Assembly (NCBI RefSeq): GCF_030265065.1 | Contig: NC_080408.1 | Location: 22,855,480-22,919,479, forward strand | DNA: 64,000 nt | From: Corythoichthys intestinalis | Lineage: Eukaryota | Reading direction: 5' to 3' | Part shown: positions 40,567 through 63,821 of the stretch, piece by piece | Numbering within the stretch: position 1 is the first letter of the stretch | How the letters are laid out: every line of letters starts with the position of its first letter | The notes under the pieces: model-generated | What the model saw: only the letters and a program-made list of their open reading frames with translations | Databases searched by the model: none | What the model was told of the DNA's origin: nothing | Program-made: the position numbers and the translations under genes

Positions 40567-40569
40567 ATG
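40567..40569 (+). CDS. Candidate initiator ATG ending exon 1 of the repeat-exon gene (tcaaaATGgtgagc)
   Basis: Kozak-like ATGg immediately followed by a strong donor gtgagc. All downstream exons are phase 0. The start could instead be the upstream in-frame ATG at 40414. Confidence 0.3.
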
Positions 40570-42192
40570 GTGAGCGAAATTAGTTTAACCGTACACGTTG
40601 GGTTGATGTTTTAAACCTATTTTACGTGTTCAACGTGTATGGGCAGGATCGGTACAGCAACTTGGAAATCGACTTGGAATGTGATGATGGAGGAGGAGGA
40701 GATGTCGCGGCAAGTGCTAATTTCATCAATTAATGCAATTGTGTGGCGATAATGGTGTTTACGAGGCAGGTTTCCTACCCTAAAACCAACGTATAAACGC
40801 AACACAGGTCCGTGACATTGATAGAAATGTGCTGACTGTGTTAGCTTTACTCAGTTTGTTGTCCTGCTGGGGGCCAAGAGTTCAAAATTGGCTCCATGTC
40901 CGAATGTGTTTTTTAAGTCAATGGAACTTTTTCCGGTTTAAATAAAATATAATACAAAATTTGTAAAATACCTTGTCTTAATTCAGGGGCGTCACTAGGT
41001 TTTAAGAACGGGGGGGGGGGGGGCTTAGTCTCCAGGAGTTACACAGGATGTTAGTTACACAGATTACATTTTGGGCACATATGTAACAAAAATCCTGTAA
41101 TTTGAAACTCTGAAAAATGCTACTAATTACTTGTATTTTATTAATATCTGGGTCATGCTAATTTGCCTTACACACATACACACAAAAATGTATACAAACA
41201 TTATACATATCATATTTACATACATGCATACAGTACATACAGTATATGTCAAAAGTTTGGACACACCTAGTTCAATGCAACACAAATTGATAATGATTGA
41301 TAATGCAATAAATTTGACTAATCAACCCTGAAAGGGTTACAGTGTTATTATTATGACTATGTTAATAAATATCCACTGATGATAATCATACGTGAATGAG
41401 CTCAGCGCCTGTACTCATCTATGCGTAAAGTGAGAAACACAGCTGATGCTCCAGAAGGAACCTAAAGGTTTGTGGTAAAAAGAGTGCATGCTTAACTCTA
41501 CAAGGACCTTCACAATGTTTTTCAAACTAACGAGCTAGGAGCAGCTAAGTAGCAGCGTTGTTTTAGAGCTGGAATGCTGGGAACTTTTGAAGCCGCCCCT
41601 AAAATAGGCCTAACGACGCTACTGGCTTAACTCATTCTATGATATTAAAAAATGTACGATACCAACGTACAAATACAATGATAGCCAAAGGTAGATGGCA
41701 AATCCAAAAATGTATTTGCTATATTTTTCAAAATTAACTATTAACTGTTACTATAACTATTAACACGCTGATGTGAAATTAATTGCTGTTTTACTTTTTT
41801 ATATATGTGAAATTAAAAGCTATGATTTCAAAATGTATTCATTTTGAATATTCTTTAGAATAGTTGATCAATACATATTGAAACATATGAATGATTTTTA
41901 AAAAATAAAATAAAAACACGCATAGATACATCTATGTAAGAATTGTTGAAAGTTATTTCTTGCACCTAGAAAAAAAACATTCATGGAAATTATTTTTATT
42001 TCAAACTCCCAAAAATACCTTTATAAGGCAACAATAACAAATTCAACTATCTGAATAAAAGAAATAAGAATAATTTGTTTTTAACTCGACTTTCTCTTGA
42101 GCTAAATCCAATACACTGCCAACATTGTTTAACAAATGTATAATTAGAACATGTAATAACCAGTTAGAATTGTTTTTTTTCTCACCTTTCAG

Positions 42193-42252
42193 CAAAAGGC
42201 GGCATTGTTCGGTGGCATGTTCAAGAGATCCACCAAGTCTACAGAACCGCAG
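42193..42252 (+). CDS. Repeat-exon gene, basic module (QKAALFGGMFKRSTKSTEPQ)
   Basis: Acceptor ctttcag|CAA, donor CAG|gtacca. 60 nt, phase 0 to 0. Confidence 0.6.
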
Positions 42253-42349
42253 GTACCACAACTGGGTGAACAACAATAAACATAATACTGTAATGGTCAA
42301 CTTTTGTGACATTGTTGTCCATATTCCCATTTGAATGTTTCCAACACAG

Positions 42350-42412
42350 GACAATCTGTCAATCAGCAGTGAACTGTCAAAGAGCAACGAAAGTCTTAAC
42401 GACAATACCAAG
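42350..42412 (+). CDS. Repeat-exon gene, acidic Ser/Asn module (DNLSISSELSKSNESLNDNTK)
   Basis: Acceptor acacag|GAC, donor AAG|gttacg. 63 nt. Confidence 0.6.
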
Positions 42413-42484
42413 GTTACGGTCTTATATCGACTGTTCTGTGGTGTGCATGATGCTAATTATGATGTACAAATTGTTTAATTCCAG

Positions 42485-42550
42485 GATAAAGGAAACATGT
42501 TTAAGGGTATTTTCAAGAAGCAGCATAAATCATCCAAAGAGCCAACACAG
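42485..42550 (+). CDS. Repeat-exon gene, basic module (DKGNMFKGIFKKQHKSSKEPTQ)
   Basis: Acceptor ttccag|GAT, donor CAG|gtctgt. 66 nt. Confidence 0.6.
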
Positions 42551-42646
42551 GTCTGTTTTTGTTTTGACATTCTGAATTACGTTTTAGGATAATTTTAGAG
42601 TTGTTTCCAAGAACACAATTTAAAATAACACAATTTTTTTTTCTAG

Positions 42647-42709
42647 GTAGCACTCTCCCAGCACAGTCCTGAGCTTTCGGCTAGTAATGGCAACACGGAA
42701 GACAGCAAG
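42647..42709 (+). CDS. Repeat-exon gene, acidic module (VALSQHSPELSASNGNTEDSK)
   Basis: Acceptor ttttctag|GTA, donor AAG|gtaggc. 63 nt. Confidence 0.6.
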
Positions 42710-61418: not shown

Positions 61419-62794
61419 AATGCATTTTTTTTTTCTGTTAAAAGTTTTAAAATTGAATTTAAATCACTTTTTATACTCTTATATAAATGGAACTGTGTGT
61501 GCATGTTCATTCCATATAGATTCTGAAACGGCCAGTTGGATTTTAACAAAACTTTACACAGTTGTACTTTGTGTCTGGGAGTATTCTTAGATATGTTTGA
61601 TCGCTGTAGGCCTCGATTTAGTGCGGAAACTAAATTTGAAACTCAAAAAAATTACCTGATTTCGAGGTTTGGTATGTGTTGATTTAACAAACCTTAGCTT
61701 CAACAACACTGTACAAGTAGTATACACGGGCTATACTGCTAGTTTCTTCTAATTTGAATTGTATTTATTCTAATAAAAGGCTTATTTATTGTAGTTTTTG
61801 TAAATGTAGTTTTCATTTCATCCTAACTAAAGTTTTTCTATTAGATTAGATTTTGATGAAAATGTTTTCTGTAGCGACGCAGTGGTAGAGTGGTTAGTAG
61901 TATGTTTGCCTCAAAGTTCTGAGATTGTTGGTCAATCCCAGCTCTGGCCTCCCTGTGTGGAGGTTGCATGTTCTCCCGTATCTGCGTGGATTTTCTCCAG
62001 GTACTCCAGCTTCCTCCCACATCCCAAAAACATGCATAGTAGGCTGATTGAAGACTCCAAATTGCCCGTAGGTTTGAGTGTGCGCGAGGATGGTCGTCTG
62101 TTTTTATGTGCCCTGCCACTGGCTGGCAAGCAGTTCAGGGTGTACTAGGGGTGTGACAAAATATCGAAATGGTGATATATCGTGATACTTTGTATCCAAA
62201 AAGAATCGAGATATTGTTTTAAAAAGGTGTCAATGTTTCCACCACAGGTTATCAATAGGGTTGGGATCTGGGCTATTTGTAGGCCATGACATGACTGGAT
62301 AAGACTTTCTCCAAGGACTGCTTTAACGGTTTTAGCTCTGTGGCATGATGCATTGTCATCTTGGAAAATGACATATTTTCATTTGAAGGGATAAGAAATC
62401 TAAAATGTCTAAAATTTCAATGTAAACGTTTGAAATTTGTTGAAGATTTAACCACAGCCATCTCCCCAGTGCCTTTGCCTGACATGCAGCCCTACATCAT
62501 CAAGTACTGAGGGAATTTTGATGTCTTCTTCAGGCAACCATCTTAGTAAATCTCACTGGAATGGCACCAAACAAAAGTTTCAGCATCATCACCTTGTCCA
62601 ATGCAGATTCTTGGCTCTTGACACCTTGTCCAATGCAGATTCTTGACTCTTTGTCCAATGCAGATTCTTGACTCTTGACAAGGTGATGATGCTGGAACTT
62701 TTGTTTGGTGCCATTCCAGTGAGATTTACAAAGATTGTTGCCCGAAGAACCTGTTCCAGAGAGACCTTAAATGGCCCAAAATTACCTAATTGCC

Positions 62795-62925
62795 TGGCAT
62801 TGACTGCCACTGACAGCCATAGACGTTCAATCCGTTTGAAGTGGGAGGGATGGCAGTGAATGAACGAATGTTCATTCGCTGCCACCCTCCCAGTTCAAAT
62901 GGATTGGACGTCTACTAGTGATAAA
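62795..62925. mobile_element. GACGTCCAATCC MITE copy, complete with extended ends (cattgactgccactgacagccatagacgttcaatcc...ggattggacgtctactagtg)
   Basis: Perfect ~30-bp inverted termini around a palindromic core. Confidence 0.6.
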
Positions 62926-63426
62926 GTCATTCCAATTCACAGCAGAAACTTTTTTTCTGTTTATTAGTTGTTTGTACTATCCTAGACTGATTTCCTGACC
63001 AATGTATCGATAATCGTTGTATCGCCTTATCGTCAGATCATCGTTATCGTGAGCTATGTATCATGAGGTTCCCACTCCTAGGGTGTACCCTGCCTGTTTT
63101 TAGGCTCCAGCACCCAAGTGACCCTAGGCTAAGTGGTTCAGAAGACGAATGAATGAATCAATGTTTACTTTAATCGGAGTGGTCTCCTTTTTTGTTTTTA
63201 TTCATTAGTTTGTCACCATTCAACAAAAGAAAATCTTATTCGGCCTAATTGATAATGATAACAGTATTATTAGCCTAACAACATAAACCGATTATGGCAA
63301 AATTACTTTTTTTTAACTTCTGTGACCTTTGACCTCATGACCCCAAAATGCAATCACCCCTCCCACTTCATTTTATACATTTCCTGCTCCATATTTGATA
63401 ATACTGTAATCCCTTTTTCTTTTCAG

Positions 63427-63504
63427 AATGAGGGGGAAAACAGGTGCTTGTTTGAGCAATTGGAGGAATTCCGCATCGATCCATTGCCGCCTGAAGAGCG
63501 ACAG
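63427..63504 (+). CDS. Repeat-exon gene, C-terminal non-repetitive part (NEGENRCLFEQLEEFRIDPLPPEERQ)
   Basis: Acceptor cttttcag|AAT, donor CAG|gtcggt. 78 nt. Confidence 0.55.
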
Positions 63505-63582
63505 GTCGGTTTGGAATAATCATCTCCCTGGCAGGGCCTTGTTAATTGGCCTCCATCAAGTGTTTTTTTTTTTTTTCCGCAG

Positions 63583-63622
63583 GATTTTGAGCGTCTTATG
63601 GAGTGGTGGAACACTGTGGAGT
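63583..63622 (+). CDS. Repeat-exon gene (DFERLMEWWNTVE)
   Basis: Acceptor ttccgcag|GAT, donor T|gtaagt. Ends in phase 1. Confidence 0.55.
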
Positions 63623-63769
63623 GTAAGTCCAAAATGAAATCCTGGGGACACTGACTAGTCAATCGCCATCAATGGCGAAAACGATTGGGTTATTAAATAT
63701 GTATAACATTCTTGTGGTCTTTTATCTTTTAGTTGTATGTTTTTTAAAAAAAGATACTGTCTTTCTCAG

Positions 63770-63821
63770 CTTGGGAGGATACACCTAAGGACGAAGACAT
63801 GACGGAGAAAGAAGAGGCAAA
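63770..63821 (+). CDS. Repeat-exon gene (SWEDTPKDEDMTEKEEAK), continues past the window edge
   Basis: Acceptor tttctcag|CT takes the phase-1 carry-over. Donor AA|gtgagt. Confidence 0.5.

Follow-up and report, generated by a model that had tools for sequence, protein, structure and literature searches.

Proteins of the apolipoprotein L (ApoL) family, including APOLD1, have been tied to the traffic, fission, and fusion of membranes (PMC11726835). The origin of APOL1 and APOL2 has been placed within the Old World primates and that of APOL1 to APOL4 within primates; APOLD1 is an old, conserved member of the family (PMC8557400). APOLD1, also called VERGE, is an endothelial membrane-associated ApoL-domain protein linked to Weibel-Palade bodies and cell junctions (PMC9973481, PMC10328887, PMC11726835). 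Zebrafish apol1 (NP_001025309.1) occupies a 2.6-kb locus and has been described without a secretory domain and without mention of an N-terminal arm (Anderson et al. 2015, PMC4492502; Kotb et al. 2016, PMC4854397). Here we analyze a stretch of 64,000 nucleotides from the pipefish Corythoichthys intestinalis (assembly GCF_030265065.1, contig NC_080408.1, positions 22,855,480 to 22,919,479 of the forward strand), called the window below. Its positions 40567 to 63821 on the plus strand hold the first 32 coding exons of the C. intestinalis RefSeq gene "apolipoprotein L1," and most of these exons encode an N-terminal arm of about 650 residues with four NPF tripeptides. This arm, its relatives, and its possible role are the subject of this report.

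Identity of the gene and its relatives

A first-pass annotation made from the DNA letters alone had described a gene of about 30 short phase-0 exons, encoding alternating basic and acidic modules plus four NPF motifs, and had left its family unmatched. Start, end, exons, modules, and NPFs are all present where it placed them. A scan of the plus strand found GG(M/I)(F/L)KK, ELS(A/K)SN, DLLDID, PLPPEE, MEWW, and four in-frame NPF tripeptides with the flanks quoted for them, and a splice-site scan placed these motifs in short open stretches, each between an AG and a GT and each in phase 0. A search with the draft concatenate returned teleost proteins of about 1,000 amino acids, the best match being "apolipoprotein L1 isoform X2" of C. 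intestinalis (P0001, XP_057714274.1) at 93% identity; the gene is real, and the family is a known one. The exon chain was fixed by exact mapping of P0001, residues 1 to 681 of which match the window exactly, and the extra exon of isoform X1 was then added. The joined 32 exons encode 699 amino acids, 100% identical to residues 1 to 699 of isoform X1 (P0121, XP_057714270.1, 1,019 amino acids). The window holds the 5' two-thirds of the gene, which continues beyond it as the first reading had it: residues 700 to 1019, including the whole Pfam ApoL match, are encoded outside. That match (PF05461, 121.1 bits against a cut-off of 25.9, E = 8e-35, residues 688 to 942 of P0001) begins 6 to 7 residues past the last codon of the window. 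Orthologues of about 1,000 amino acids, all carrying PF05461, occur in many teleosts. The locus is an already annotated RefSeq gene of the ApoL family, in the teleost apol1 group, and not a new kind of system.

Comparison with the nearest relatives places the gene within the family. Danio aesculapii apol1 is 72% identical over 371 amino acids, in a BLASTP alignment that starts at residue 614, at the last NPF exon. This alignment runs from that last basic NPF exon through an LM(E/D)WWNTVE junction and the whole ApoL domain, and zebrafish apol1, like the pipefish protein, has no signal peptide. The cyprinid proteins are, however, only ~440 to 490 amino acids long, with a ~160-residue N-terminus, a single NPF, and no basic/acidic modules, compared to an arm of ~650 residues in the pipefish. 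Osmerus apold1a (XP_062338500.1) is 43% identical over 309 amino acids of the junction and ApoL part and 34% identical over 331 amino acids of the basic/acidic module region. Such apold1a-type paralogues (1,100 to 1,700 amino acids) have the same GG(M/L)F(K/R)K and ELSASNDSLS units and many isoforms but differ in having no NPF and a long charged C-terminal tail behind the ApoL domain. Searches with the ApoL part by phmmer gave E values of 1e-118 to 1e-155 for the orthologues and of about 1e-41 to 1e-73 for the apold1a-type paralogues. Judged by its name and by sequence similarity, which is higher to apol1 than to the paralogues, the pipefish gene belongs to the teleost apol1 orthology group.

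The similarity to APOLD1 covers the homologous region of helix 5 and the hydrophobic hairpin (36% over 142 amino acids with a lemur APOLD1, E = 2e-16). Teleost apold1a matches APOLD1 at 32% over 124 amino acids (E = 4e-13), so it is no closer to APOLD1 than the pipefish protein is. APOLD1 differs in being short and armless: among 120 amniote APOLD1 sequences (161 to 352 amino acids, median 246), none has an NPF or the MEWW junction. These were all database proteins. With human APOL1 to APOL6 the pipefish protein shares the PF05461 match and a hairpin-centered architecture. Unlike human APOL1, which is specific to primates, it has no signal peptide.

Because human APOL1 is primate-specific, the RefSeq name "apolipoprotein L1" reflects an inherited zebrafish gene symbol and not APOL1 orthology; one-to-one orthology with human APOL1 is ruled out by the primate origin of that gene (PMC8557400). 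Orthologues of the pipefish gene carry automatic names such as starmaker-like, dentin sialophosphoprotein-like (DSPP), piccolo, titin, dao-5-like, and NOLC1-like. One and the same orthologue is named differently in different species, so the names follow from low-complexity composition rather than from homology. The gene neighborhood was compared with that of a single further syngnathid, Stigmatopora argus, whose locus is collinear with the window and has a TEP1-like gene directly upstream.

Translation and conservation of the exons

Could the modules be repeat-derived, untranslated or pseudo-exonic sequence that gene prediction has wrongly stitched together? The sequence is of low complexity and repetitive, the long introns are rich in transposon remnants, and the collinear locus of S. 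argus (L001, 10001 to 20477) is annotated as two genes, a 555-residue product without a Pfam domain that corresponds to the arm and a 439-residue ApoL-domain product. This two-gene annotation is most likely a split gene model. Against a pseudo-exonic origin stands the pattern of divergence between the two syngnathids. Over the aligned blocks, identity is 86.5% in the exons and 79.8% in the introns beside them; indels come in multiples of three in 7 of 9 cases in exons versus 33 of 121 in introns. Identity at codon positions 1, 2, and 3 is 0.884, 0.912, and 0.789, as expected for purifying selection on a protein. Orthologues with the same module order are found from Elopomorpha (Aldrovandia, Megalops) and Clupeiformes to Percomorpha, with open frames kept throughout. 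Splice sites point the same way, with AG acceptors and GT (two GC) donors throughout the 32 exons, and so do isoforms that differ by exact exon cassettes. We therefore give almost no credence to a stitching artifact. Loss of frame in orthologues was among the findings that the first-pass annotation had said would overturn it; the frames are conserved across teleosts, and its reading of a real translated gene stands.

Module architecture, duplication, and splicing

The coding chain starts with an ATG at 40567 to 40569, immediately followed by a GT donor (GTGAGC), and position 63821 is the final base of the final in-window exon. As first described, the short exons keep one phase: exons 2 to 30 (29 exons of 42 to 120 nucleotides) are all phase 0-0, and the phase is broken only at exons 31 (40 nucleotides) and 32 (52 nucleotides). 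All acceptors are AG and all donors GT, but for two GC donors after exons 2 and 11. The features are as follows (all on the plus strand; residues are numbered as in isoform X1).

40567..40569, +, exon 1, coding part is the ATG only, 5' untranslated region upstream; residue 1
40647..40709, +, exon 2, 63 nucleotides, phase 0-0, DRYSNLEIDLECDDGGGGDVA, conserved acidic N-terminal peptide, net -6; residues 2-22
42193..42252, +, exon 3, basic module 1, QKAALFGGMFKRSTKSTEPQ, net +3; residues 23-42
42350..42412, +, exon 4, acidic Ser/Asn module 1, DNLSISSELSKSNESLNDNTK; residues 43-63
42485..42550, +, exon 5, basic module 2, DKGNMFKGIFKKQHKSSKEPTQ, net +4; residues 64-85
42647..42709, +, exon 6, acidic module 2, VALSQHSPELSASNGNTEDSK, opens the duplicated triplet; residues 86-106
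42784..42855, +, exon 7, basic module 3, EKSSVLGGMLKKTPKRGHARRPSQ, net +6; residues 107-130
42947..43000, +, exon 8, diverged acidic module, DLLDIDMFASNNNVNNNK; residues 131-148
44919..44990, +, exon 9, acidic module, APVSQHNPELSVSNGSLDDSKPSK, second triplet copy; residues 149-172
45061..45129, +, exon 10, basic module 4, DKSSVLGGILKKPKRGHARRPSQ, net +6, 87% DNA identity to exon 7 over 45 nucleotides; residues 173-195
45193..45249, +, exon 11, diverged acidic module, DLLDIDLSASNNNVNDNNK, 80% DNA identity to exon 8; residues 196-214
47164..47235, +, exon 12, basic module 5, ESAGMFSGMFKKSPKPLKEKTKSQ, net +4; residues 215-238
47318..47383, +, exon 13, acidic module, DDLSQTNELSASNENLSEGGPK; residues 239-260
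47464..47535, +, exon 14, basic module 6, EKVGLFGGMFKKPKIPNIARTKSQ, net +5; residues 261-284
51710..51829, +, exon 15, 120 nucleotides, last acidic module plus linker, EDLTASSELSASSDNLTEKTSKEKSEGFKENLMEKPKVKQ; residues 285-324
51918..51965, +, exon 16, NGFSAMMKNAFHSDKH, cassette exon in Syngnathus typhle isoforms; residues 325-340
52942..53001, +, exon 17, acidic, DEDNTEETSEKSENQAGHKQ; residues 341-360
53081..53200, +, exon 18, NPF 1 (AMNKLNPFRSG), then an acidic Ser-rich tail; residues 361-400
53295..53348, +, exon 19, NPF 2, AMSKLNPFKSANK, 54-nucleotide cassette exon, in X1, skipped in X2; residues 401-418 of P0121
54228..54290, +, exon 20, KDTEDPEMLKDTDKQVEGKQK; residues 419-439
54381..54455, +, exon 21, LKYDVDRERKQRSETPLLPRRPAHE, PLLPRRP, a PxxPxR SH3-ligand-type motif; residues 440-464
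54520..54579, +, exon 22, EKNGTPAQDKAKSKTSEDSK; residues 465-484
54668..54745, +, exon 23, EKKDMTSRQKADKEVPKVPPNKPSQE, degenerate second proline motif (orthologue consensus VPPRPSxEEL); residues 485-510
58323..58379, +, exon 24, EMRRRGANTLVPKQENQHQ; residues 511-529
58448..58528, +, exon 25, acidic, net -8, SQSDDELLKDDGEGREDDEVTLAESKA; residues 530-556
58693..58752, +, exon 26, NPF 3, basic context, net +8, KKKKKKRYNPFMPQVAAKVQ; residues 557-576
58825..58932, +, exon 27, strongly acidic, net -15, PASDEEALKDEEKADDDDEEDEEDKKEEDGTTKSEQ; residues 577-612
59014..59064, +, exon 28, NPF 4, basic context, net +7, VKAKKAKRRNPFMQHIK, most conserved NPF; N622, P623, F624
59241..59282, +, exon 29, 42 nucleotides, TKVVQRRDADADAE; residues 630-643
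63427..63504, +, exon 30, NEGENRCLFEQLEEFRIDPLPPEERQ, first predicted helix (residues 651-660); residues 644-669
63583..63622, +, exon 31, 40 nucleotides, ends in phase 1, DFERLMEWWNTVE, conserved junction helix (residues 667-680)
63770..63821, +, exon 32, 52 nucleotides, phase 1 to 2, SWEDTPKDEDMTEKEEA(K), leads to the long helix from residue 695; residues 683-699

Two-exon units repeated in tandem make up the first half of the arm, and each unit joins a basic Gly/Met/Phe-containing exon to an acidic Ser/Asn exon. By net charge there are six basic exons (3, 5, 7, 10, 12, and 14; net +3 to +6), each with a (G/S/K)G(M/I)(F/L)K(K/R) core, interleaved with seven acidic Ser/Asn exons (4, 6, 8, 9, 11, 13, and 15; net -1 to -4), which agrees with the alternation of GGMFKK and Ser/Asn modules first noticed. 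The DLLDID exons 8 and 11, taken at that time for a third module type, do exist but turn out to be acidic modules that have diverged, as a comparison of DLLDIDLSASNNNVNDNNK with DDLSQTNELSASNENLSEGGPK shows. Exons 6 to 8 and 9 to 11 form a tandem duplicate, in which the exon DNA is 80 to 87% identical and the introns are too diverged to register as repeats. A degraded Tc1-type element with fragmented open reading frames and a weak DDE_3 match (43369 to 44460, plus strand, intron 8) lies exactly between the triplet copies. The second half (exons 15 to 29) is not repetitive like the first; it contains the four NPF tripeptides, one clear PxxPxR, and charge-alternating exons. Two positions of exon 2 (L11 and E12) and five of exon 31 (L674, M675, W677, W678, and V681) are invariant in an alignment of 32 sequences.

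How much of this array varies within a species? RefSeq predictions for C. intestinalis include isoform X2 without exon 19, hence with three NPF, and isoform X3 without exon 2. Annotated isoform pairs in eight other species, likewise predicted, show no mismatch at all, whole exon cassettes being the only differences. The cassettes correspond to window exon 16, exon 19, exons 23 and 24, exons 26 to 29, or one or two basic plus acidic pairs; the equivalents of exons 23 and 24 form one cassette in S. scovelli and Morone isoforms. The free duplication and skipping of exons that the uniform phase had been said to permit is thus seen on both counts, in the duplicated triplet and in the predicted isoforms. 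A 1-residue Gln difference between Acanthopagrus latus isoforms fits a tandem NAGNAG-type acceptor like that of exon 10, which suggests that such sites may be used in orthologues. The acceptor of exon 10 itself is a tandem cag/cag (45055 to 45063; 45058/45061), where the upstream AG would add one Gln. The gene has two GC-AG introns, with donors gcaagt after exon 2 (40710 to 40715) and gcgagt after exon 11 (45250 to 45255); exon 2 is also one of those that an annotated isoform lacks.

NPF and other linear motifs

All EH domains bind NPF tripeptides, and the C-terminal EH domain of EHD1 to EHD4 prefers acidic residues after the NPF (PMC13282721). The four NPFs in 699 residues compare with 0.066 expected, and none of 20,000 shuffles of the protein's own residues reached four. 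Motif conservation was counted in 100 full-length orthologues, with shuffled sequences as control.

NPF: 100/100 orthologues, mean 3.9 (range 2-6), shuffled 0.08
P..P.[RK]P: 82/100, mean 1.11, shuffled 0.01
Basic core: 100/100, mean 6.2, shuffled 0.09
Acidic core: 95/100, mean 3.5, shuffled 0.01
Clathrin-box pattern (LLDID in the pipefish): 21/100, mean 0.28, shuffled 0.22

The clathrin box, seen twice here, was discarded as a general feature, being found in only 21 of the 100 orthologues and at the frequency of the shuffled control. The NPFs fall into three recurrent contexts: K(I/L)LKNPF(T/S)SS, (M/L)xKLNPFRSAN, and (P/H)K(R/K)HNPFMPR(V/A). The first lies in the exon 15 segment of most non-syngnathid orthologues and is absent in C. 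intestinalis. The exon 28 NPF (N622, P623, and F624) is invariant in 32 of 32 sequences and is retained even in the short cyprinid protein, and at least 90% conservation is also seen for N371, P372, F373, and R374 in exon 18 and for N565, P566, and F567 in exon 26.

Since NPF occurs far above chance and in every one of the 100 orthologues, it is reasonable to suppose that the motifs act as ligands, possibly of EH domains, and recruitment of EH-domain proteins by tripeptides in a disordered, accessible region is plausible from the sequence. The first-pass annotation had simply called NPF the ligand for EH domains; abundance and conservation speak for this, and the flanks argue against one part of the family. 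They are basic or neutral (NPFRSG, NPFKSA, NPFMPQ, and NPFMQH), without the acidic residues that follow NPF in EHD1 to EHD4 ligands. With such flanks, if EH domains are the partners at all, proteins with N-terminal EH domains (Eps15/R, intersectin, and REPS) are likelier than EHDs. The EH domains of Eps15 prefer NPF followed by Arg or Leu, which KLNPFR would fit; we treat this as a lead only.

The closest parallel in organization is found in endocytic and recycling adaptors such as epsin, Numb, EHBP1, MICAL-L1, Rabenosyn-5, Rab11-FIP2, and syndapin, whose disordered, charged regions likewise hold several NPFs together with a proline-rich motif of the SH3 type (PMC13282721). There is no sequence homology between these EH-recruiting adaptors and the pipefish arm, and the resemblance is one of mode of action only. 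EHD1 ligands have acidic flanks, whereas the pipefish arm has basic ones and fuses its motif array to a membrane-inserting ApoL domain.

Predicted disorder, structure, and topology

An AlphaFold2 run with a 32-orthologue alignment gave a model of low overall confidence (mean predicted local distance difference test score [pLDDT] of 43.8, predicted template modeling score of 0.31). Residues 1 to 650 have no predicted secondary structure and a pLDDT below 50, in line with the disorder expected by the first reading. The first helices are predicted at residues 651 to 660 (LFEQLEEFRI), 667 to 680 (...LMEWWN), and 695 to 747. The last three in-window exons are therefore the start of the folded part, and not the C-terminus for which they had been taken. 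No helix is predicted before residue 651, so an amphipathic helix in the GGMFKK segments finds no support in this model. The proposal of a disordered adaptor or scaffold survives in part: the disordered, motif-bearing region is there, but it is the arm of an ApoL-domain protein (PF05461, 121 bits), whose hairpin lies outside the window, and not a free-standing protein.

The 19-residue Kyte-Doolittle maximum over residues 1 to 650 is 0.08, meaning that no hydrophobic segment is present there. The only hydrophobic segments of P0121 are at residues 753 to 803 and 900 to 928, both beyond the window. The former is the hairpin, with Kyte-Doolittle values above 1.2, flanking helices predicted, and a Gly/Ala/Thr-rich composition. 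At the other end, the N-terminus is acidic (MDRYSNLEIDLECDD), and no secretion signal of the primate APOL1 kind was found in it. A sequence search of solved structures returned only insignificant matches (E ~0.15), all over the hairpin (P0121 residues 749 to 839); they are NheL1 (6tao) and MakE (6w08), components of ClyA-family pore-forming toxins.

The basic modules, likened in the first reading to membrane- or calmodulin-binding effector segments, invite comparison with those of the MARCKS type, as six exons with a net charge of +3 to +6 contain one or two Phe, Met, or Leu each. There is no sequence homology to MARCKS and no predicted helix. The charge density of the modules is lower than that of MARCKS.

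Distribution of the arm

To trace the arm by itself, a profile was built from eight diverse teleosts, ending right in front of the ApoL match, and run against 1.84 billion representative proteins. At E <= 0.001 there were only 90 matches; the 20 of these that were looked up by name are all from teleosts. With 20 of 90 matches named, the arm was found only in teleosts. The matches include apol1 orthologues, the NPF-free apold1a paralogues of 1,100 to 1,700 amino acids, and further teleost ApoL genes that share the junction, such as catfish si:cabz01007807.1, one from Megalops, and one from a salmonid whose protein has six MQKVNPFKS repeats. Within apol1, Elopomorpha, most Clupeiformes, and most neoteleosts have a long arm, and salmonids, pike, characins, and catfishes a shorter one; the N-terminal length ranges from ~100 to 160 amino acids in cyprinids and Lampris to ~750. 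The cyprinid remnant keeps one basic NPF (KKKPKNPFMPQ) and the junction.

The junction, (E/D)xLM(E/D)WWxTVExW(E/D), also stands behind quite different N-terminal repeats in P0175, P0186, P0189, P0190, P0203, and P0191. Examples of these repeats are 4 to 6 GMF(K/T)GMMQKVNPFKS copies (salmonid and Stegastes) and DIFQTTPSDFKS repeats (Megalops). An ApoL domain follows the junction in P0203 and P0191, and none was found by phmmer in P0175. In this teleost ApoL subfamily, exon-modular arms seem to be the general pattern. Literature searches on an N-terminal arm of ApoL proteins, on NPF, and on apold1a in fish turned up nothing relevant, and the ApoL review (PMC11726835) is silent on fish; within the searchable literature, the exon-modular NPF-bearing arm and its restriction to teleosts appear to be undescribed.

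What does the arm do?

To the question of function, the answer that we put forward, at about even chances, is a flexible recruiting arm with NPF and SH3-ligand motifs on a hairpin-anchored cytosolic ApoL protein. The ApoL hairpin would most likely anchor the protein to the cytosolic side of a membrane. With no signal peptide, and with both ends of a two-span hairpin lying on one side, the arm should face the cytosol; signal-less APOL isoforms have been reported on the cytoplasmic leaflet of the endoplasmic reticulum (PMC8557400), which matches such a placement. The arm would serve as a flexible recruiting platform, its conserved NPFs binding EH-domain proteins of the endocytic and recycling machinery, probably of the Eps15/intersectin/REPS type rather than the EHD type given the basic flanks, and its proline motif binding an SH3 partner. 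The basic-hydrophobic modules may add weak, multivalent, and probably phosphorylation-sensitive contact with acidic lipids. The number of modules, and hence the valency, would be set by exon duplication and loss in evolution and by cassette skipping within species. A recruiting arm on an ApoL hairpin is consistent with a role in trafficking, since the family has been linked to membrane traffic, fission, and fusion. A wider and more tentative proposal is that teleost ApoL/APOLD1-type proteins are hairpin-anchored trafficking adaptors, in which the basic NPF ~50 residues before the ApoL domain couples membrane remodeling to the EH network and the long arm of most lineages adds NPF, SH3, and lipid modules, with splicing setting the valency.

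Several points weigh against a recruiting arm. All partner assignments rest on short motifs, and the basic or neutral flanks disfavor the EHD-type part of the EH family. The apold1a proteins have the modules without NPF, so modules and NPF are separable, and cyprinids are almost without the arm, which means that the ApoL domain can do its core work without the modules. Nuclear localization signals are an equally good reading of the lysine runs in front of NPF 3 and NPF 4. The low-confidence AlphaFold2 model predicts no amphipathic helix in the basic modules, and transcript support comes from RefSeq models.

The near absence of the arm in cyprinids and the NPF-free apold1a paralogues keep alive the main rival explanation, in which the arm is mainly a regulatory or spacer polyampholyte, charge-blocky and phosphorylatable. 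Such an arm would act on the ApoL domain by tuning, autoinhibition, or clustering, with intramolecular electrostatics and condensate formation as examples of how, and the NPFs would serve a non-EH partner. Neighboring exons do alternate strictly in charge (+3 to +6 against -1 to -4, then -8, +8, -15, and +7 further on), the acidic modules are rich in Ser, the length of the arm is highly variable, and the misfit of the NPF flanks with the EHD preference would come as no surprise. A polyampholyte explains less well why NPF is kept in all 100 orthologues in three conserved sequence contexts and why the last NPF persists where the rest of the arm is lost, which is typical of a specific ligand motif and not of composition; we regard this rival as possible but doubtful. 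If instead the runs KKKKKKR and KAKKAKRR in exons 26 and 28 were nuclear localization signals, the protein could be nuclear or nucleolar, with acidic Ser-rich blocks like those of nucleolar phosphoproteins, as the composition-driven names dao-5-like and NOLC1-like might hint. These names vary by species for the same orthologue, however, the basic runs always lie directly before an NPF, and a 50-residue hydrophobic hairpin with 36% identity to the membrane protein APOLD1 makes a nuclear protein unlikely. The names "protein starmaker-like" and "dentin sialophosphoprotein-like," together with acidic modules rich in Ser, Asp, and Asn, would suit a secreted acidic phosphoprotein of biomineralization. 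Such a protein is very improbable here, since signal peptide and hydrophobic N-terminus are both lacking, and all the proteins so named carry PF05461, the same orthologues being called apolipoprotein L1 in other species.

Other features in the window

Upstream of the apol1 gene, the 3' part of a large gene occupies 6844 to 36906 on the plus strand, with at least 15 blocks collinear with an S. argus gene at 73 to 88% identity. The S. argus counterpart encodes a 2,668-residue product with TROVE, NACHT, and WD40/beta-propeller domains, identifying it as TEP1-like (telomerase/vault-associated protein 1), and one open reading frame of the upstream gene in the window weakly matches the second beta-propeller of TEP1. 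The remaining features are mobile or repeated elements.

24061 to 24972, minus strand: intact 303-residue open reading frame of a Tc1/Sleeping-Beauty-type transposase (HTH_Tnp_Tc3_2 E = 3e-24, DDE_3, HTH_SB), in an intron of the TEP1-like gene
50884 to 51246, minus strand: 120-residue open reading frame with a BED zinc finger (PF02892, E = 1e-9), in the 4.2-kb intron 14, probably a hAT-type transposon remnant
45713 to 46341 (intron 11) and 47927 to 48578 (intron 14): two copies of one interspersed repeat, whose pairs of open reading frames are near-identical in translation (...VRVLFIFFLMHCQN... and MAKALQ(S/P)LS...LEISWEA(I/V)WG...)

Implications for ApoL biology

At the level of the gene the importance is small, since this is an annotated RefSeq gene of a well-known family. 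Its name is misleading all the same: "apolipoprotein L1" is not the orthologue of primate APOL1, and the starmaker, piccolo, DSPP, and titin names of its orthologues are composition artifacts. A caution follows for the zebrafish apol1 nephropathy model, as the cyprinid relatives examined are nearly without the 650-residue arm that most other teleosts keep; the core common to cyprinids and other teleosts includes one invariant NPF. Recruitment of EH and SH3 proteins by the NPF and PxxP motifs, if it takes place, would tie ApoL proteins directly to the endocytic machinery through the arm. If teleost ApoL proteins are indeed trafficking adaptors, this would give a molecular handle on an APOLD1-like cellular role and on the contested kidney phenotype of zebrafish apol1. 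The arm is thus a modestly interesting lead for the cell biology of ApoL and APOLD1.

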